This document shows, piece by piece, positions 4,555-50,991 of a stretch of DNA of 64,000 bases (position 1 is the stretch's first letter; each line of letters begins with the position of its first letter). The notes under the pieces were generated by a model. It ran no database searches, had not been told where the DNA came from, and saw only the letters and a list, made by a program, of their open reading frames with translations. Location: positions 15,891 through 79,890 of the forward strand of contig JACPFM010000024.1 in the NCBI GenBank assembly GCA_016182965.1, read 5' to 3'. This DNA is from Deltaproteobacteria bacterium. GTDB taxonomy: Bacteria > Myxococcota_A > Polyangia > Polyangiales > JADJMO01. The position numbers were made by a program, and so were the translations under genes.

Positions 4555-5802
4555 ATGACGACGGTCATGGACATCATGGACAGCCAGCCTCGCGACGCCG
4601 GGCCCGCCTCGTGGCATCGTGCCGCGATGCGCCTCGCGAGCCGACTCGCCGCCGCCGCCGGCCTCATCGGCGCGCATCGCGACGTGCTCGCCGCACGGCC
4701 GGCCGGCTCCGGCGTGCCGGCCGCGCTCGATGCACGCGGGTGGACGGGGTTTCTCGCAGATCTCGGCGACGCATCCGTCGACGCCTTCGAGATCGCCGGC
4801 CTCGACGCTGACTGGAGCGCGGCGCCCCCGTCGCTCGCGGCGATGGTCGCCGAAGCGCGGGCCGTGTGCGCGGTGCCCGAATTGACCGAGGGTGCGCTCG
4901 GGCGCGACGCACCGCGCCATCGCCGTGCGTCGCGGCGCGGCGAGACCCCGCGCAAGTCGGCGCAGATCGACGCGTTCGCGTGGGTGCTCCTCCCGATCGC
5001 GCGCGACGCAGGTCGGATCGTCGACGTCGGCTCGGGGCACGGTCACCTGACCCGCGAGCTCGAGGCGCGGCTCGCGCGCCCGGTGCTCGGGCTCGAGCGC
5101 GACGTCCGCCTCACGGCGCGCGCGCGCTCGCTCGGCGGCGCGTTCGCGGAGACCGACGTGCTCCGCGACGGTCTGCCCCTCGAAGCCGGCGACTGCGTCG
5201 TCGGGCTGCACGCGTGCGGCGAGCTCGGCGACGTGATGGTGCGGAGCGCCGCCGAGCACCGCGCGTCCATCGCGCTCGTCGGCTGCTGCCTGCAGAAGCG
5301 ACGCGACGACGCGCGCGTGCCGCTGTCGGAGGCCGAGCCCGTCCTCGCCACGCGGCTGCTCGGCCTCAGCAACCTCGTCGCGCGCGAGGAGGGCGTCGAG
5401 GCCTCGCGCGCCGACAACCTCGCCGCCCGCGCGCGGCGGCTCGCGCTCCATCGGCTGCTGGTCGAGCGCGTCGGCCCGCTGCGGCTCGGCGCGGAGATGG
5501 ACGGCCTCAACCGGCGCGCCGCCCACGCCGATCTCTCGACGCTCGTCGAGCGGGCGTTCGCGCGGCGAGCGCTCGCGGTCCCGTCCGCGGCCGACGTGCG
5601 CGCGGCCGACGCCTGGGCGCGCGAAGAGCACGCCCGCGCGCGGCGCCTCTCGCTCCCGCGCGCCTTGCTCGCGCGCGTGCTCGAGGTGTTCGTGCTCGCC
5701 GATCGCGCCTGCTTCCTCGAGGCGCACGATCGAGAGGTCGTCGTCGGGAGGGTGTTCCCCGCGGGCGTGAGCGCGCGGAACCTGGCGCTGGTCTCTCGCT
5801 GA
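4555..5802 (+). CDS. SAM-dependent methyltransferase (Methyltransf_32-like)
   Basis: 415-aa ORF with motif I VDVGSGHGHLTRELE and GLHACGELGD..ALVGCCLQK, typical of the PF13679-type family from memory. Divergent from the lyase gene with a 35-nt gap. Confidence 0.65.
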   Translation: MTTVMDIMDSQPRDAGPASWHRAAMRLASRLAAAAGLIGAHRDVLAARPAGSGVPAALDARGWTGFLADLGDASVDAFEIAGLDADWSAAPPSLAAMVAEARAVCAVPELTEGALGRDAPRHRRASRRGETPRKSAQIDAFAWVLLPIARDAGRIVDVGSGHGHLTRELEARLARPVLGLERDVRLTARARSLGGAFAETDVLRDGLPLEAGDCVVGLHACGELGDVMVRSAAEHRASIALVGCCLQKRRDDARVPLSEAEPVLATRLLGLSNLVAREEGVEASRADNLAARARRLALHRLLVERVGPLRLGAEMDGLNRRAAHADLSTLVERAFARRALAVPSAADVRAADAWAREEHARARRLSLPRALLARVLEVFVLADRACFLEAHDREVVVGRVFPAGVSARNLALVSR

Positions 5803-12688: not shown

Positions 12689-13984
12689 CTACCTCCGCGC
12701 GACGAGCACCAGGATCACGATCAACAGCACGACCACGAGCGCGATCAGCGCGGTGTTCGTCTTGTTCGCGGGCGGGGCAGGACCGGGGACAGGCTGCGGC
12801 TGCGGCGGCGGGGGCGCGCTCGAGACCATCGTCTCGGCTGGCGGCGGCGCGGGCGGCATCGGGCTCGCCAGCGTGCCGCTCGACGGCGCCGCCGGTAGCG
12901 CGCCGGCGCTCGCCAGCGTTCCGCTCGAAGGCATGGGCTCGCGCAGGGCGACACCGCTCGCCGGCTCGGGCGCGCGCCGGGTCGAGACGTCCTCCTCCCG
13001 CGGACGCGGCGCGGGCGGGGCCAGCGACGCGCGGGCGGCGCGCTTCGCGCCGAGCACGCCGCTCTCGCGCAGGCCGAGCGCGTCGCGCAGCGCCGCGCGC
13101 ATCTCGCGCGCGTCCGCGAAGCGCGCCTTGGGATCCTTCTCGAGCGCGCGGAGGCAGATCGCTTCCAGCGCAGGATCCGCCGCCGCGCGCAGCGTCGTCG
13201 GCGGCGTGGGCTTCTGGTTGATGTGCGCGAGGAGCAGCTTGACGCTGTTCGACGACTTGAACGGCAGCTGCCCGGTGAGCATGTGATAGAGGATCACGCC
13301 GACCGAGTAGAGATCGCTCCGGCCGTCGAGCGGATCGCCCTTCGCCTGCTCCGGCGCCATGTAGTCGGGCGTGCCGACGAGCGAGCCCGCGATGGTGAGC
13401 GTCGCGGTCGCGGTCGCGGGCGGCTGCGTCGGATCCTTCGGCGGCTCCTGCGTCTTGACCTGCTTCGCGATGCCGAAGTCGCATAGCTTCACGATCTCGG
13501 CCGCGTCGCCGTCGTCGTCCCGACCGACGACGACCATCACGTTCTCCGGCTTGAGATCGCGGTGGACGATGCGCGCGTCGTGCATCACGGCGAGCGCGGC
13601 GAGGAGCTGACCGATCAGCTCGGCGACGCGCGTGCGATCGAGCGGGAAGTCGTCCTTCATGATCGCGCTCAGCGGCCGACCGTCGATCAGCTCCATCGCG
13701 ATGTAGAGGAGATCGCCGTCCTCGCCGAAATCGATCACCCGCATGAGGTTCGGGTGATCGAGCTGCGACGCGGCGTTCGCCTCGCGCTTGAACCGCGCGG
13801 CGTACGTCGGGTCATCGAGGAGCTCGGTGCGCAGCACCTTGATCGCGACCGCGCGGCGCAGGCTCTTCTGCCGCGCGCGGTACACGGCACCCATGCCGCC
13901 GCGACCGATCAAGCACTCGATCTCGAACTTGCCGTCGATCAGCCGCCCGATGAGCGGGTCGGTGGCGGGCTCGGGGCCGAACAT
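12689..13984 (-). CDS. Ser/Thr protein kinase with C-terminal TM anchor
   Basis: [40 protein letters not shown]. Pro/Ala-rich linker and terminal TM segment ALIALVVVLLIVILVLVARR. ATG at 13984 preferred over the GTG at 14005. Confidence 0.9.
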   Translation of the reverse strand: MFGPEPATDPLIGRLIDGKFEIECLIGRGGMGAVYRARQKSLRRAVAIKVLRTELLDDPTYAARFKREANAASQLDHPNLMRVIDFGEDGDLLYIAMELIDGRPLSAIMKDDFPLDRTRVAELIGQLLAALAVMHDARIVHRDLKPENVMVVVGRDDDGDAAEIVKLCDFGIAKQVKTQEPPKDPTQPPATATATLTIAGSLVGTPDYMAPEQAKGDPLDGRSDLYSVGVILYHMLTGQLPFKSSNSVKLLLAHINQKPTPPTTLRAAADPALEAICLRALEKDPKARFADAREMRAALRDALGLRESGVLGAKRAARASLAPPAPRPREEDVSTRRAPEPASGVALREPMPSSGTLASAGALPAAPSSGTLASPMPPAPPPAETMVSSAPPPPQPQPVPGPAPPANKTNTALIALVVVLLIVILVLVARR

Positions 13985-33562: not shown

Positions 33563-33581
33563 GGGGGTGGCAGTCTAGCAA

Positions 33582-33689
33582 GTCGTCCGTCATCAGTCGT
33601 CAGTCGTCAGCGCTGCCACGTCCGGTCGGCTGTGCTTCGCCCCAGCGCGGTTCTCGCCCGATGACTGACGACTGACGACCGATGACTCA
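33582..33689. repeat. inverted heptamer-array cassette between the response-regulator gene and tatB
   Basis: Arm 33582-33610: GTCGTCC GTCATCA GTCGTCA GTCGTCA G. Arm 33662-33689: TGAC TGACGAC TGACGAC CGATGAC TCAG, which contains the regulator stop codon at 33687-33689. The arms are reverse complements (22 nt with 1 mismatch), separated by a roughly 54-nt core. Confidence 0.95.
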
Positions 33690-34295: not shown

Positions 34296-34473
34296 GCGGT
34301 CCAGTGTAAGCGGATCCGTCCTCGGTGTTCAAGCGGGTCGGCCGGGCCCCGCGCGGCTCGTGCACCGCCCGAAGCTCGAAACGCCGCGGAACCAAGCCGA
34401 TCGCGTGCTGACCCGGTGCGTCACGAGGATCCCTCTTGTCAGGTACGGCGCTTTGACGAATGGTGCGCGACCG

Positions 34474-35670
34474 ATGAGCGTCACGCCCTCCACCAAGAAC
34501 GCCGTTGCGGCGACCGCGGCGCACGAAAACGGCAAGAACGGCGCGGCTCACGTGTTGGGGCCGGCGCTCTCGCCGCTGGTCACGCACGAGCCGGTCCGCG
34601 TGATGCGCGAGGACGGCACGGTCGATCCGGCGCGTGATCCGAAGCTGTCGGACGACCGGCTCGTCGAGCTGTACTCGATGATGGTCCGCACGCGCATCAT
34701 CGACGAGCGCCTCGTGACCTTGCAGCGCCAGGGCCGCATCGGGTTCCACATTGGCTCACTCGGCGAAGAGGCGACGATCATCGGGTCGGCCGCCGCCGCG
34801 CGCCCGCAGGACTGGATCTTCCCCTGCTATCGCGAGTTCGGCGCGCTCCTGCTGCGGGGAATGCCGCTGCAGAGCTACGTCGACAACATGTTCGGCAACG
34901 CGAACGATGCGGTGCGCGGGCGCCAGATGCCCGACCACTACACCGGCAAGCCGTATCATTTCGGCTCCGTCTCCTCCCCCATCGGCACGCAGATCACGCA
35001 GGCTGTCGGCTTCGCGTGGGCGGCCAAGATGAAGAAGGACGACCTGGTCACCCTCGTGTACTTCGGCGAGGGCGCCACCTCGTCGAACGAGTTCCACAAC
35101 GGGGCGAACTTCGCCGGCGTCTTCAAGACCCCCACCGTCTTCCTCTGTCGCAACAACGGGTGGGCCATCAGCATCCCGGCGAGCAAGCAGTCGGCGTCGC
35201 AGACGTTCGCCGACAAGGCCGTCGCCTACGGCATCCGCGGCGTCCGCGTCGACGGCAACGACGTGCTGGCCGTCTACCTCGCCACGCGCGAGGCCATCGA
35301 GCGCGGCTCGCGCGGCGAGGGTTCGACGCTCCTCGAGCTCCTCACCTACCGCCTGTCCGGCCACTCCACGAGCGACGACCCGAAGGCCTACCGCAAGGAC
35401 ACCGAGGTCGAGGCCTGGAAGAGCAAGGACCCGAACGTGCGGTTCCGCGGGTGGCTCGAGCGCCGGGGCCTATGGAACGACGAGAAGCAGACCAGGCTCG
35501 AGGAGGCCGCCGCGGCCGAGCTGCAGGCGTGCGTGCAGGCCGCCGAGAAGGCGCCGACGCCGACGCTCGAGTCGATGTTCGACGACGTGTACGCGGAGCT
35601 GCCCTGGCACCTCCGCGAGCAGCGTGACGAGCTCGTGCGCGGCCCGCGCGCCAAGGGGCACGGACACTGA
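34474..35670 (+). CDS. 2-oxoisovalerate (branched-chain 2-oxoacid) dehydrogenase E1 alpha
   Basis: ATG at 34474. QGRIGFHIGSLGEEA, YREFGALL, TPP motif YFGEGATSSNEFHNGANFA, NNGWAIS, YRLSGHSTSDD. Confidence 0.9.
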   Translation: MSVTPSTKNAVAATAAHENGKNGAAHVLGPALSPLVTHEPVRVMREDGTVDPARDPKLSDDRLVELYSMMVRTRIIDERLVTLQRQGRIGFHIGSLGEEATIIGSAAAARPQDWIFPCYREFGALLLRGMPLQSYVDNMFGNANDAVRGRQMPDHYTGKPYHFGSVSSPIGTQITQAVGFAWAAKMKKDDLVTLVYFGEGATSSNEFHNGANFAGVFKTPTVFLCRNNGWAISIPASKQSASQTFADKAVAYGIRGVRVDGNDVLAVYLATREAIERGSRGEGSTLLELLTYRLSGHSTSDDPKAYRKDTEVEAWKSKDPNVRFRGWLERRGLWNDEKQTRLEEAAAAELQACVQAAEKAPTPTLESMFDDVYAELPWHLREQRDELVRGPRAKGHGH

Positions 35671-35671
35671 G

Positions 35672-35689
35672 GCGCGCCTACCGGCGCGC
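35672..35689 (+). terminator. GC hairpin directly after the E1alpha stop
   Basis: GCGCGCC-TACC-GGCGCGC: 7-bp stem and 4-nt loop, starting 2 nt after TGA (35668-35670). No U-tract, and inside an operon, so it may be a stabiliser or attenuator rather than a terminator. Confidence 0.35.
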
Positions 35690-35690
35690 A

Positions 35691-35718
35691 GTCGTCAGTC
35701 GTCAGTCGTCAGTCATCA
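35691..35718. repeat. heptamer array, stop-proximal arm: (GTCGTCA)x3 + GTCATCA
   Basis: Read directly: gtcgtca gtcgtca gtcgtca gtcatca. Confidence 0.95.
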
Positions 35719-35750
35719 GCCGAGACGCGAGGATGCCCTTGGCGCTGACA

Positions 35751-35764
35751 AGTGAGCGCTCACT
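35751..35764. repeat. perfect 14-bp palindrome AGTGAGCGCTCACT
   Basis: Self-complementary over all 14 positions. It lies between the heptamer arm and the octamer array. Confidence 0.9.
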
Positions 35765-35862
35765 ACTGAGGGAGACTGAGGGACTGAGGGACTGAGGGAC
35801 TGAGGGACTGAGGGACTGAGGGACTGAGGGACTGAGGGACTGAGGGACTGAGGGACTGAGGC
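35765..35862. repeat. tandem octamer array (ACTGAGGG): 11 perfect + 1 imperfect copy
   Basis: First copy at 35765-35772, then a 2-nt AG insert, then 10 perfect copies at 35775-35854, then ACTGAGGC. Eleven GGG tracts are spaced by 5 nt on the coding strand. Confidence 0.95.
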
Positions 35863-35882
35863 ACCGACGACCGACACCCTCT

Positions 35883-35943
35883 CGACTGACGACTGACGAC
35901 TGACGACTGACGACTGACGACTGACGACTGACGACTGACGACT
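35883..35943. repeat. heptamer array, start-proximal arm: (CGACTGA)x8 + CGACT (equivalent to TGACGAC units)
   Basis: Eight perfect units at 35883-35938 plus a partial unit. Followed by GGAG (35945-35948) and the E1beta ATG at 35957. Confidence 0.95.
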
Positions 35944-35956
35944 CGGAGACCGACCG

Positions 35957-36931
35957 ATGCCCCAGATGAACATGGTCCAGGCGATCAACGACGCGCTTCG
36001 CCTGGAGATGCGCAAGAACGACACGGTCGTGGTCCTCGGCGAAGACGTCGGGAAGGTCGGCGGCGTGTTCCGCGTCACCGCCGGGCTCTACGACGAGTTC
36101 GGCGACGACCGCGTCATCGACACGCCCCTGAGCGAGGGCGGGATCATCGGCACCGCGATCGGCATGGCCCTCTACGGCCTCGTGCCGGTGCCCGAGATCC
36201 AGTTCGGCGACTTCATCTTCCCCGCCTACGACCAGATCGTCAGCGAGCTCGCCAAGTTCCGCTACCGCTCCGGCGGCGAGTACGTGAGCAAGCTGGTCAT
36301 CCGCACGCCGGTGGGCGGCGGCATCCGCGGCGGCCACTACCACTCGCAGTCGCCCGAGTCGCAGTTCATCCACGTCGCCGGCCTGAAGGTGGTCTGCCCG
36401 TCGAACCCCTACGACGCCAAGGGCCTCTTGCTCGCGTCGATCCGCGATCCCGATCCCATCCTCTTCTTCGAGCCCAAGCGCATCTACCGCGCGGCCAAAG
36501 GCGAGGTGCCCGAGGGCGAGTACACCGTGCCGCTCGGCAAGGGCCAGATCGTCAAGCCCGGCAAGCACGTGACGGTCGTCGCGTGGGGCGCGATGCTCTA
36601 CGAGGCGCTCGACGCGGCGGCGCAGGCGCAACAGAAGGGCATCGACTGCGAGGTCATCGACCTCCGCACGCTGTGGCCCCTCGACATCGACATCATCGTC
36701 GAGAGCGTGAAGAAGACCGGCCGCGTGATCGTGGTCCACGAGGCGCCGAAGTCCTGCGGGTTCGGCAGCGAGATCGTGGCCCTGATCAACGAGAAGGCGT
36801 TCCTCCACCTCGAGGCGCCGCCGGTGCGCGTCACCGGCTTCGATACGCCGTTCCCCTACACGCTCGAGATGGAGTACCTCCCCCTCGCGCACCGCATCCT
36901 GCCCGCCATCGTGCAGACGGCGCAGTACTAG
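35957..36931 (+). CDS. 2-oxoisovalerate dehydrogenase E1 beta
   Basis: MPQMNMVQAINDALRLEM..VVLGEDVG..GGVFRVT..DTPLSEGGIIG..PEIQFGDF.., transketolase-like pyrimidine-binding and C-terminal domains. Confidence 0.92.
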   Translation: MPQMNMVQAINDALRLEMRKNDTVVVLGEDVGKVGGVFRVTAGLYDEFGDDRVIDTPLSEGGIIGTAIGMALYGLVPVPEIQFGDFIFPAYDQIVSELAKFRYRSGGEYVSKLVIRTPVGGGIRGGHYHSQSPESQFIHVAGLKVVCPSNPYDAKGLLLASIRDPDPILFFEPKRIYRAAKGEVPEGEYTVPLGKGQIVKPGKHVTVVAWGAMLYEALDAAAQAQQKGIDCEVIDLRTLWPLDIDIIVESVKKTGRVIVVHEAPKSCGFGSEIVALINEKAFLHLEAPPVRVTGFDTPFPYTLEMEYLPLAHRILPAIVQTAQY

Positions 36932-36965
36932 TCGTCAGTCATCAGTCATCAGTCATCAGTCATCC
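36931..36965. repeat. heptamer array, stop-proximal arm: GTCGTCA + (GTCATCA)x3 + GTCATCC
   Basis: Begins with the last base of the E1beta TAG (36929-36931). Confidence 0.95.
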
Positions 36966-37030
36966 GGGGGGCCTCGCTCGCCGATGCATGCTTCGAGGTG
37001 ACGGACGCTGACGAAAGAACCGACGGCTCA

Positions 37031-37088
37031 CGACTGACGACTCGCGCGACTGACGACTGACGACTGACGACTGACGACTGACGACTCG
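37031..37088. repeat. heptamer array, start-proximal arm: CGACTGA, CGACTCG, CG, (CGACTGA)x5, CGACTCG
   Basis: Five perfect units at 37047-37081. Followed by GAGGA (37088-37092) and the E2 ATG at 37100. Confidence 0.95.
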
Positions 37089-40171: not shown

Positions 40172-40192
40172 CTTCGACCTTCGACCTTCGAC
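40172..40192. repeat. tandem heptamer (CTTCGAC)x3
   Basis: gCTTCGACCTTCGACCTTCGACcc in the M23 to RavA-like spacer. Confidence 0.9.
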
Positions 40193-40260
40193 CCAGCGCG
40201 CATCCATCGCGGCAACGCTCCGGCCACGCGAGCGCGAAAGTGCACTACGATGGCGCCCCG

Positions 40261-49734: not shown

Positions 49735-50991
49735 CTACGGGCCGACGACGCGATTGCGGCCGCCGGCCTTGGCCGCGTACAGCCGCTGATCGGCCCGCGC
49801 GACGAGCAGATCGCCGTCGAGGGTGCGCGGGATCTCGCCCTGGTAGAGCTCGACGATCGTCGCGACGCCGAACGAGGAGGTGACCGGGATCGCGCCGCCC
49901 TGCCAGGGCACCGGCAGCCGCTCGATGCCGCGGCGCAGCCGGTCGGCGAACATCACCGCGTTGGGGCCGTCGATGCCGCGCGCGAGCAGCGCGAACTCCT
50001 CGCCGCCGATGCGGGCGAACACGTCCTCGACGCGGATGGCCTTGCCGATCGCCGCCGAGACGCCGCGCAGGACCGCGTCGCCCGCCGGGTGCCCGTAGGT
50101 GTCGTTGACCTTCTTGAAGAAGTCGATGTCGAGGAGGATGAGCGACAGGTGGCCGCGGTGGCGGAGCGCGTGGGCGATCTCGCTCTTGAGCCGCTCCTGG
50201 AAGTGCTTGCGGTTGTACGCGCGCGTGAGCGGATCGCGCACGGCCGACTCGTACAGCTGGTGCTGCAGCTGCGCCTCCATGTCGTCCATGAAGGTGAAGC
50301 GCACGACGACCTCGGTGCCGACCTGGATGCGATCGCCGTCCTTGAGGGCGCGGAAGGTGACGCGCTGATCGTCGACCCAGGTGCCGTTCGTGGAGCCGAG
50401 GTCCTCGACGATGTACTCGAAATCGCCCTGCCTCACGATGCGTGCGTGCTTGCGCGAGACGCCGTCGGAGTCGAGGTGGATGGTGCTCTGCGGACCGCGA
50501 CCGAGGACCGTCTCCTCGTTGGTCAGCTTGAACATCTCGCCGGCGCGCGCGCCGGCCATCACGGTGAGGTACGCGCGCTTGGTCTGCTGCGCGCTCTGCG
50601 GCCGATACGCCGGCGCGCCGACGATCGTGGCGCCGACGCGCGTCTGCTCGCCGTCGTCATCGCCGAACCCCTCGAGCCCGGGGGGCATCATCGACGAGAG
50701 GATGAAGTCCTGCGACGGCACCGGATTGGCCGGCGCGGGCGGAGGCGGCGGCGGAGGGGCCGGCGGAGCGGCCGCCGGCTGCGCGGGGCGCGGCGCGTTG
50801 CCGAACGCGCCCTGCGGCACCGGCGCGTTGCCGAACGCCCCCGGCGGCACGGGCACGTTGCCGAACCCCGGCGGTGAGTGCGGCACGGTCGCCTGCCGCC
50901 TCAGCGCCGCAGGATCGCGCGGCACCGGCGTCGGCTCTTCGCCCGACGGACGCCGGGGCGGAGGTCGCGGGGGCTGCTTCGGATCGGCCAT
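49735..50991 (-). CDS. FHA-domain diguanylate cyclase (GGDEF)
   Basis: Pro-rich N-terminus. FHA domain (LGRGPQSTIHLDSDGVSRKHARI..DLGSTNGTWV). GGDEF domain with I-site RVED five residues before GGEEF. Confidence 0.9.
   Translation of the reverse strand: MADPKQPPRPPPRRPSGEEPTPVPRDPAALRRQATVPHSPPGFGNVPVPPGAFGNAPVPQGAFGNAPRPAQPAAAPPAPPPPPPPAPANPVPSQDFILSSMMPPGLEGFGDDDGEQTRVGATIVGAPAYRPQSAQQTKRAYLTVMAGARAGEMFKLTNEETVLGRGPQSTIHLDSDGVSRKHARIVRQGDFEYIVEDLGSTNGTWVDDQRVTFRALKDGDRIQVGTEVVVRFTFMDDMEAQLQHQLYESAVRDPLTRAYNRKHFQERLKSEIAHALRHRGHLSLILLDIDFFKKVNDTYGHPAGDAVLRGVSAAIGKAIRVEDVFARIGGEEFALLARGIDGPNAVMFADRLRRGIERLPVPWQGGAIPVTSSFGVATIVELYQGEIPRTLDGDLLVARADQRLYAAKAGGRNRVVGP

Follow-up and report, generated by a model that had tools for sequence, protein, structure and literature searches.

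A probably slippage-born octamer array inside the loop of a hairpin made of repeats between the E1alpha and E1beta genes of a Polyangiales bacterium

Why should an operon carry eleven copies of a G-rich octamer between two genes whose products are needed 1:1? The question is raised by a locus of a Deltaproteobacteria bacterium (Polyangiales; NCBI GenBank assembly GCA_016182965.1), in which a tandem array of the unit ACTGAGGG stands between the genes encoding E1alpha and E1beta, the subunits of the E1 alpha2beta2 tetramer. The stretch of DNA analysed here (hereafter, the window) is 64,000 nt long (contig JACPFM010000024.1, positions 15,891–79,890 of the forward strand), and the array lies at window positions 35765–35862. 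The original prediction, made from the letters of the window, saw in the array a potential G-quadruplex (G4) former and, as possible roles, standby or decoy sites for the ribosome and a platform for CsrA-type regulators. Our analysis favours another answer: the array is probably a long simple-sequence repeat that arose by slippage and is tolerated within a co-transcribed hairpin, itself built from repeats; its likeliest effect would be modest and would depend on copy number.

The array itself is secure: direct reading of the sequence, Tandem Repeats Finder (TRF), a script count and shuffles all bear out the eleven ACTGAGGG units reported at 35765–35862 on the + strand. The first unit (35765–35772) is followed by an inserted AG (35773–35774), ten contiguous and perfect ACTGAGGG units (35775–35854), and a final, degenerate unit (ACTGAGGC, 35855–35862). 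TRF describes positions 35774–35861 as a repeat with a period of 8 nt, 11.0 copies, 100% matches and a score of 176. The 16-mer dimer of the unit, allowing up to two mismatches, has ten matches in the window, every one of them within the array, as compared with an average of 0.02 and at most one after dinucleotide shuffling. As a head-to-tail repeat of a 5–11-nt unit that runs for longer than expected by chance, the array is a long simple sequence repeat (LSSR), and it is the sole octamer array of the window. It lies about 94–104 nt from both E1alpha and E1beta, starting 94 nt past the E1alpha stop and ending 95 nt short of the E1beta start on direct reading, with the G-rich strand as the sense strand, and a perfect 12-nt palindrome, GTGAGCGCTCAC, can be read just 5' of it (35752–35763, + strand). 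As had been pointed out, TGA occurs in every one of the three frames, the period of 8 nt sharing no factor with 3. A metagenome scan with the left array junction, GTGAGCGCTCACTACTGAGGG, gave no matches.

One further observation concerns the E1alpha stop codon. Its context, (C)ACTGAGGC at 35665–35672, repeats exactly the degenerate unit with which the array closes, and an array-free relative (L125) shows ACTGAGGG at its E1alpha stop. The match may represent the seed of the repeat, or it may be a coincidence.

The decisive context, absent from the original prediction, is a hairpin of inverted heptamer arrays. The octamer array forms the loop of a ~255-nt palindrome that occupies the 286-nt intercistronic spacer (35671–35956, + strand) between E1alpha (PF00676; 34474–35670, + strand, with the start placed by alignment of relatives and the TGA stop at 35668–35670) and E1beta (PF02779 and PF02780; 35957–36931, + strand). 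The left (5') arm, (CAGTCGT)4.4 with AGTCATC as its last unit, covers 35689–35719 and is free of stop codons on the + strand; the right (3') arm, a perfect (CGACTGA)8.7, covers 35883–35943 and contains TGA in three frames. Both arms were recovered by TRF and as inverted-repeat pairs, and are complementary over 26 nt at 100% and over 37 nt at 95%. The predicted RNA fold of the spacer has an energy of −129.5 kcal/mol (z = −7.55 versus shuffles), with a stem of ~45 bp overall and the array inside the loop. It also leaves free the Shine-Dalgarno (SD) sequence of E1beta, GGAG at 35945–35948, which follows directly after the right arm and just 3' of the stem; 13 nt separate the end of this arm from the E1beta ATG. 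A small GC hairpin, GCGCGCC-TACC-GGCGCGC (35672–35689, + strand), folds directly 3' of the E1alpha stop. Since repeat-free L125 carries a counterpart (GGGCGCG-TCG-CGCGCCC), this small hairpin belongs to the ancestral spacer.

The window contains two more hairpins of the same kind, and together the three are its outstanding inverted repeats. The first fills the spacer between E1beta and E2, with a left arm of AGTCGTC plus (AGTCATC)4 (36930–36964, + strand) that overlaps the E1beta TAG stop, and a right arm of (GACGACT)9 with one interruption (37022–37086, + strand). Once more the right arm ends 13 nt before a start codon (E2 ATG, 37100), with the SD sequence GAGGA in between; this spacer folds with z = −3.9. 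The second, for which no strand is assigned, consists of (AGTCGTC)4.3 at 33581–33610 and (GACTGAC)3.6 at 33663–33687, and lies between the stop of a response-regulator gene and the start of a tatA/B-like gene, both on the minus strand. The arms of both hairpins were found by TRF and inverted-repeat searches. Matches to the heptamer dimer fall within the three hairpins in 28 of 31 cases, where 2.4 are expected for the whole window. An E2 gene (PF00364, PF02817 and PF00198) lies 3' of E1beta, and the operon encodes a branched-chain or other 2-oxoacid dehydrogenase. No promoter-like or terminator-like sites were found in the spacers, and the E1alpha–E1beta spacer has no match to an Rfam family at E ≤ 1.

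How might such a locus have arisen? Replication slippage and template switching within hairpins are both established mechanisms, and both would have been at work here. The palindromic element, with its stem of inverted arrays in the order 5'-(AGTCGTC)n...(GACGACT)n-3', would have taken over the E1alpha–E1beta spacer, and slippage would then have produced a young repeat with an 8-nt unit in the apical region of the element. GACTGA is common to the octamer, GGGACTGA, and the heptamer of the right arm, CGACTGA, and the octamer also has the polarity of that arm; most simply, it is a one-step derivative of the heptamer (C to GG). Having expanded on one side only, it would have been left without a complement, and therefore within the loop. 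Slippage would continue to homogenise the units within each arm, and template switching inside the hairpin (quasipalindrome correction) would introduce complementary changes into both arms. The element is presumably co-transcribed with the operon, in which case the arms would pair in the RNA (26 bp perfectly, ~45 bp overall), displaying the array as a purine-rich, weakly structured loop and leaving the E1beta SD free. The likeliest effect would be altered mRNA processing or stability at the E1alpha/E1beta junction, with E1beta initiation uncoupled from E1alpha termination. The element would thus be tolerated rather than required, and G4 formation, 30S binding or CsrA-type binding would be possible side properties of a GGGA-rich unit, not the reason for its existence.

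Comparison with relatives indicates that the elements are recent. The best E1beta homologues come from uncultured Polyangiales/Polyangiaceae (at most 95% identical), followed by cultured Chondromyces, Minicystis and Polyangium (86–88%). Repeat hairpins are present in three lineages (the window, L124 and L001), which are about equally distant from each other in E1beta (about 90% nucleotide identity). In the closest relative, L124 (E1beta 91.5% identical at the nucleotide level), E1beta is preceded by (CGACTGA)n and followed by (AGTCGTC)n; the 1047-nt contig of L124 starts within the former and stops within the latter, and therefore the arrays broke the assembly. L001, a JGI metagenome contig with 90% nucleotide identity, shows the gene order of the window and has hairpins in all three orthologous spacers. 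In contrast, the spacers of relatives with 87–88% nucleotide identity (L002, L125–L127 and L128) are repeat-free and 17–75 nt long, or 0–75 nt if Chondromyces crocatus is counted. Since relatives at ~90% have hairpins and those at 87–88% have none, the elements are recent, turn over fast and originated within a small clade. Within the element, the octamer array is the youngest layer, because its purity is 100%, in contrast to arms that contain variant units.

The orthologous hairpins also differ in their units. In the tatB–regulator spacer, L001 has the heptamer unit of the window, with alignable arms and an unalignable loop. Its E1alpha–E1beta arms, however, are AGTCTAG/CTAGACT, and its E1beta–E2 arms AGTCGAC/GTCGACT; the latter differ from the AGTCGTC/GACGACT of the window by one compensated T-A to A-T change, carried through every unit of both arms. 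Complementarity is not always preserved: in the E1beta–E2 spacer of the window, the four AGTCATC units of the left arm face GACGACT, so that the sense RNA has A.C mismatches; L124 keeps AGTCGTC. This change is an uncompensated sweep. Hence units are homogenised within arms, and complementarity between arms is kept usually, but not always. The arm mismatches checked by hand in the sense RNA (E1beta–E2 spacer, four units) are mostly A.C rather than G.U, which argues against strong selection for RNA pairing, although the cases are too few to settle the point. Separately, the E1beta–E2 spacer of L001 contains a 53-nt tandem duplication (4972–5077, 2.0 copies, 98%), which copies the left heptamer arm together with a (GACGAGA)n stretch.

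If the array is a product of slippage, is its unit, or that of the arms, particular to this locus? An exact scan for (ACTGAGGG)3, with one genome per species, returned at least 120 loci, as did a scan for (AGTCGTC)3 in metagenomes. The octamer matches listed include Acidobacteriota (many per genome in Terracidiphilus), Bacteroidales, Cytophagales, Thermodesulfobacteriota, Streptomyces, Planctomycetota, Verrucomicrobiota, Clostridia, Burkholderiales and one Myxococcales metagenome-assembled genome (MAG); one Thermodesulfobacteriota MAG has ACTGAGGG arrays on at least ten contigs. The octamer loci listed mix ACTGAGGG with ACTAAGGG, ACTGAGAG, ATTGAGGG, GCTGAGGG and other units, and their GC content ranges from 31 to 75% (36 to 71% for the AGTCGTC loci). 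Periods 7 (370 arrays) and 8 (231 arrays) dominate among the loci listed. We considered, and dropped, the idea that both units are unusually widespread. In viral contigs, where the control numbers are small (0–9 loci), the real heptamer occurs at four loci and two permuted heptamers at nine and two; the real G3 octamer occurs at three loci and its permuted counterparts at zero and two. Permuted units being equally frequent, the units of the window are, as far as such small numbers can tell, no commoner than arbitrary ones, and the matches reflect the general abundance of 7–8-nt repeats in bacteria.

Nor is the enclosure of an octamer array by a stem a general rule, a possibility that we rejected because, of the 109 octamer loci compared among the matches listed, only 3 independent ones have strongly complementary flanks. 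The three cases span Myxococcota (the window), Acidobacteriota (L044, 5853–6041, a MAG in which a GGGACTGA-type array lies in a loop between CAGGTGT/CTGACAC arms) and Bacteroidales (L068, 6430–6600, also a MAG, with a GGGACTGA-type array between GGAATGAT/ATCATTCC arms). Among the ~240 loci listed, no locus besides the window combines an AGTCGTC hairpin with an octamer array. Octamer arrays and heptamer hairpins are thus separable. A bias is visible in placement: across the 120 octamer loci listed, and by crude calls of open reading frames (ORFs), the left neighbour is co-oriented with the array in 64 cases versus 35.

Some octamer loci deserve mention in their own right. A Bacteroidales MAG has octamer arrays on the scale of kilobases, with 159 copies at 90% matches in L036 (1–1273), which also contains 105-nt and 51-nt tandem repeats. 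This locus and three others (L046, L075 and L104) share contig CAXXOX010000004.1, where several octamer arrays lie within ~70 kb (~448–520 kb). Finally, representatives of two Terracidiphilus species (L021 and L022) are 96.7% identical over 1.9 kb and have an identical, interrupted octamer array, which indicates that short, interrupted arrays are not hypervariable at that divergence.

The G-rich strand invites a second explanation, akin to the G4 roadblock of the original prediction: a functional G4. Two or three quadruplexes stacked in the non-template DNA or the mRNA would serve, between E1alpha and E1beta, either to block passage or to stabilise. The motif part of this claim stands. A script and a motif scan find eleven GGG tracts (at 35770, then every 8 nt from 35780 to 35852) with 5-nt loops, in keeping with the G3+N1-7 rule; they provide two non-overlapping G3N1-7 motifs, the only ones on the + strand of the window, where the next-longest run of closely spaced G tracts has three. 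Oligonucleotides of related G-rich heptamers form K+-dependent G4s in vitro, and the placement of those heptamers (PMC4692102) is like that of ACTGAGGG elsewhere, the G-rich strand of which, in co-directional contexts among the matches listed, is sense downstream of a gene in 36 cases and antisense in 13 (crude ORF calls). The predicted propensity, however, is marginal. The G4Hunter score of 1.08 is below the usual cut-off of 1.2; ViennaRNA, run with G-quadruplex energies, picks no G4 in either the whole spacer or the array alone; and a three-layer quadruplex with three 5-nt loops would be worth about −5 kcal/mol (our own arithmetic, using the ViennaRNA formula). A strong roadblock would, moreover, unbalance a 1:1 E1alpha/E1beta complex. 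We consider a functional G4 unlikely.

The heptamers just mentioned, GGGAATC and GGGGA(C/T)T of Xanthomonas and Nostoc, are the known repeats that the array most resembles (Rehm et al. 2015, PMC4692102). GGGNATC repeats lie between the same genes in related strains, where both their sequence and their length are highly variable; no function was found for them (PMC4692102), which itself weighs against a functional G4 here. Like the array, these repeats have a short G3 unit in tandem, are non-coding, lie between co-oriented genes with the G-rich strand as sense, have at least four G3 tracts with short loops, stand beside ordinary metabolic genes, and are sometimes inverted with the potential to form stem-loops. 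Unlike it, they are 7 nt long (GGGNATC/GGGGAYT, as opposed to the octamer GGGACTGA), and prefer four copies to the eleven of the window. They occur as many dispersed copies; the 64-kb window contains one array. They typically lie within 0–50 nt of an ORF, the G-rich strand being the coding strand on the downstream side and the non-coding strand on the upstream side, while the array is about 94–104 nt from either gene, a second point against G4 function, and their G4 formation has been observed in vitro, whereas that of the array is weak by prediction.

A third explanation assigns the array to the ribosome: eleven GAGGG cores in the untranslated spacer would bind the anti-SD of 30S subunits, either concentrating them for E1beta initiation or titrating them. 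The SD-like core reported for each unit is indeed there, and pairs at −8.1 kcal/mol with the 16S tail CACCUCCUUUCU (assumed, as the 16S gene is not in the window), as compared with −6.6 kcal/mol for the real E1beta SD. No unit is followed by a start codon, so that binding would be non-productive, and the predicted fold makes the array an accessible, weakly paired loop. Yet the array ends 95 nt 5' of the ATG, with an arm of the ~45-bp stem in between, and relatives manage with platform-free spacers of 17–75 nt. Octamer arrays are also common in Bacteroidales/Bacteroidota among the matches listed, and Bacteroidota make little use of SD pairing. We consider a standby or decoy role distinctly unlikely.

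Least probable of all, and in our view extremely unlikely, is a CsrA/RsmA platform, with AGGGA motifs that would attract a protein of the CsrA family to the mRNA of the operon, or with the spacer serving as a sponge. Each unit does contain an AGGGA that fits ANGGA, giving eleven compatible motifs at 8-nt spacing, as had been proposed. The other testable features of a sponge, however, are lacking: the spacer has no promoter-like or terminator-like site and no Rfam match (CsrB, RsmY and RsmZ included), and hence shows no sign of an independent small RNA gene. The predicted fold places the motifs in 2-bp helices and internal loops of a long, irregular structure, rather than in the loops of short hairpins. 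A tblastn search of the 64-kb window with E. coli and B. subtilis CsrA found no csrA (best E = 0.58). The motif is, furthermore, a trivial consequence of any repeat that contains GGGA. Overall, a GGGA-rich unit best explains the G4 motif, the SD-like cores and the ANGGA motifs, which would accompany it as by-products and are no evidence of three functions.

The opposite strand is stop-free, as reported. The minus-strand ORFs 35702–36892 and 35716–36078 exist, but a Pfam search with both returned no match, and they are artefacts because they lie antisense to the well-supported E1beta gene.

With slippage and tolerance still the favoured account of the array, the heptamer hairpins present a property that this account leaves out: their polarity. 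In the metagenome loci listed (L129–L248), chosen irrespective of strand, (AGTCGTC)n has (GACGACT)n within 500 nt downstream in 35 cases and upstream in none. The three hairpins of the window (33581–33687, 35689–35943 and 36930–37086) share the order 5'-(AGTCGTC)n...(GACGACT)n-3'. In a TRF recount of period-7 inverted pairs across all loci listed, stop codons fall in the 3' arm alone in 28 cases and in the 5' arm alone in one. Pairing cannot explain the bias, because either order gives an identical stem. AGTCGTC hairpins are found between divergent, convergent and tandem genes. The element is symmetric; therefore any transcript meets AGUCGUC first and GACGACU second, and GACGACU is what the arm beside the start of a gene reads. 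In G-rich octamer pairs the order is reversed, and it is the G-rich arm that lies 5' (~9 loci among the matches listed). Strict polarity is the sole observation that current ideas on repeat slippage do not explain.

Two further ideas about the units found little support. The first held that (GACGACT)n marks gene starts; an initial count of 41/160 versus 8/149 proved to be confounded, as the stops in the arrays define ORF starts. A symmetric test, for an SD plus ATG or GTG within 30 nt of (GACGACT)n, gave 8/160 versus 1/149, with 2.5% at random positions, and leaves no more than a hint of gene-start placement. The second, that AGTC is constant and the remaining three bases variable, fits the window, L001, the Ga0208492 metagenome and some degenerate elements, but the profile beside perfect runs trends only weakly. 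In Ga0208492, contigs L130, L173, L203 and L204 have, at loci unrelated to those of the window and L001, the three units that these two carry, in one case nested; the hairpins are thus a dispersed family in that clade. The nested case (L204, 5642–5883) has outer AGTCGTC/GACGACT arms and inner GTCTAGA/CTCTAGA arms, two types of unit that occur apart in the window and L001; in total, at least four Ga0208492 contigs have such arrays, GTCGACA included.

A single polarity in 35 elements (matches listed) is what would be expected of ends with a defined outside, and thus raises a further possibility: that a mobile palindrome resembling a miniature inverted-repeat transposable element (MITE) inserted into the spacers, with the heptamer arrays as its terminal inverted repeats. 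The inverted termini and the presence or absence of the hairpins among relatives agree with this, and a true MITE-like insert is found nearby in L001. The latter (2270–2495) lies in the divergent regulator/E1alpha promoter region of this 94%-identical relative, and has 40-nt terminal inverted repeats of low GC content (98% complementary) around a perfect, central (CGCCCCG)7.7 array at 2353–2406; it is absent from the orthologous place in the window (34296–34473). On the other side, none of the three window elements has a target-site duplication, and no transposase gene is nearby. Orthologous spacers of the window and L001 differ either in their loops, with arms that can be aligned, or in their units. 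A BLAST comparison of about 30–35 AGTCGTC elements shows unrelated loops and flanks and no conserved body, from which it follows that the elements are not copies of one mobile element. A MITE-like origin is very unlikely.

Polarity also permits a more ambitious reading, in which the composite is an instance of an intergenic class that crosses phyla: inverted ACTGA-type heptamers in a fixed order, with arms kept complementary by compensated changes, an order read by some directional machine, and the octamer array as a functional loop module. Candidates for the machine would be the ribosome, Rho, a 5'-end-dependent RNase, or a protein that adds or binds repeats. Were such a class real, a symmetric element would yield the same RNA from whichever strand is transcribed, with AGUCGUC in the arm at a gene end and GACGACU in the arm at a gene start. 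We judge this reading improbable.

The slippage account that we prefer has weaknesses of its own. Firstly, a 255-nt structured insert between genes needed 1:1 might be expected to do harm, and the fact that three lineages have kept it could equally be a sign of usefulness. Secondly, the complementary arm units at six spacers, and the compensated change, show that pairing is somehow maintained, which fits selection for structure as well as it fits template switching. Thirdly, slippage and template switching do not predict the 35 versus 0 polarity of AGTCGTC, and the placement of the octamer, with its G-rich strand mostly sense after a gene (64 versus 35 among the loci listed), hints at a strand-specific constraint. 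Finally, the proposed derivation of the octamer from the heptamer is an argument from parsimony only, and both co-transcription and the effects on expression are things that we infer. Maintained complementarity, octamer strand bias and strict polarity could each be a pointer to a real function; nothing in the present analysis, however, shows that the array regulates something.

Dispensable, co-transcribed spacer hairpins are familiar from the REP/BIME elements of enterobacteria and the Correia elements of Neisseria, which are capable of changing the stability of mRNA and can be substrates of RNase III. These differ from the window elements in having a dispersed, conserved sequence, whereas the window elements share arms only and have unrelated loops; Correia elements are, in addition, flanked by target duplications, of which the window elements have none. 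A parallel may exist in the heptamers of the cyanobacterial STRR class: work of Mazel et al. in 1990 and of Jackman and Mulligan in 1995 is said to describe these repeats and the 'highly variable but structured' nif intergenic regions of Anabaena, reportedly with arrays inside operons that can form stem-loops, and with units that differ between close relatives although the architecture persists, much as in the window and L001. The phylum and the units are others, and we take the parallel as a lead only.

The array matches the LSSR class. As summarised in a later paper, heptamers are the most abundant class of long simple sequence repeats in bacteria and have been ascribed to polymerase slippage (Mrazek 2007, via PMC4679880). 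According to that summary, members of the class share with the array intergenic head-to-tail copies, periods of 7–8 nt, a sporadic phylogenetic distribution and a proposed origin by slippage, and the survey lists Burkholderia, cyanobacteria, actinobacteria and Xanthomonas (PMC4679880). In the literature searched, we found neither an LSSR from Polyangiales nor an array nested in a hairpin of two others, and the arrays of the window, searched as text, had no match.

Also comparable are the TAACTGA direct repeats of marine Beggiatoaceae, cyanobacteria and Bacteroidetes (MacGregor 2015, PMC4679880), for which S1, Csp and CsrA have been put forward as binders (PMC4679880). ACTGA is common to TA-ACTGA, CG-ACTGA and GGG-ACTGA, and both sets of repeats place stops in all frames. 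Most TAACTGA sets are forward and lie just upstream of starts, much as the right arms of the window lie 13 nt from the E1beta and E2 ATGs; the octamer array, in contrast, is 95 nt from a start. Further differences are that one TAACTGA set in 170 is inverted, as opposed to the inverted pairs of the window, and that TAACTGA sets have 2–6 copies of their unit, where the units of the window are CGACTGA and GGGACTGA.

Elsewhere in the window, a perfect (CTTCGAC)3.1 lies at 40172–40193, 22 nt past the stop of an M23 peptidase gene and without an inverted partner. TRF also reports repeats of longer period at 50791–50866 (30 nt × 2.5, 91% matches) and at 13028–13124 (19/38 nt × 2–4.7).

What the locus illustrates is the speed at which short tandem repeats rebuild the spacers of bacterial operons. 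Spacers of 17–75 nt in relatives at 87–88% identity correspond, in a small clade of Polyangiales, to repeat-built hairpins of 125–286 nt, with replacement of units and, in one case, a compensated change that runs through every unit of both arms. There are practical consequences for annotation: the stop-free strand of such arrays yields false ORFs, and assemblies from short reads break at the arrays. Since some close relatives have the element in this operon and others lack it, the operon offers a test bed for the effects of hairpins and G-rich arrays on mRNA processing and subunit balance; the polarity rule alone stands out as a lead to follow.

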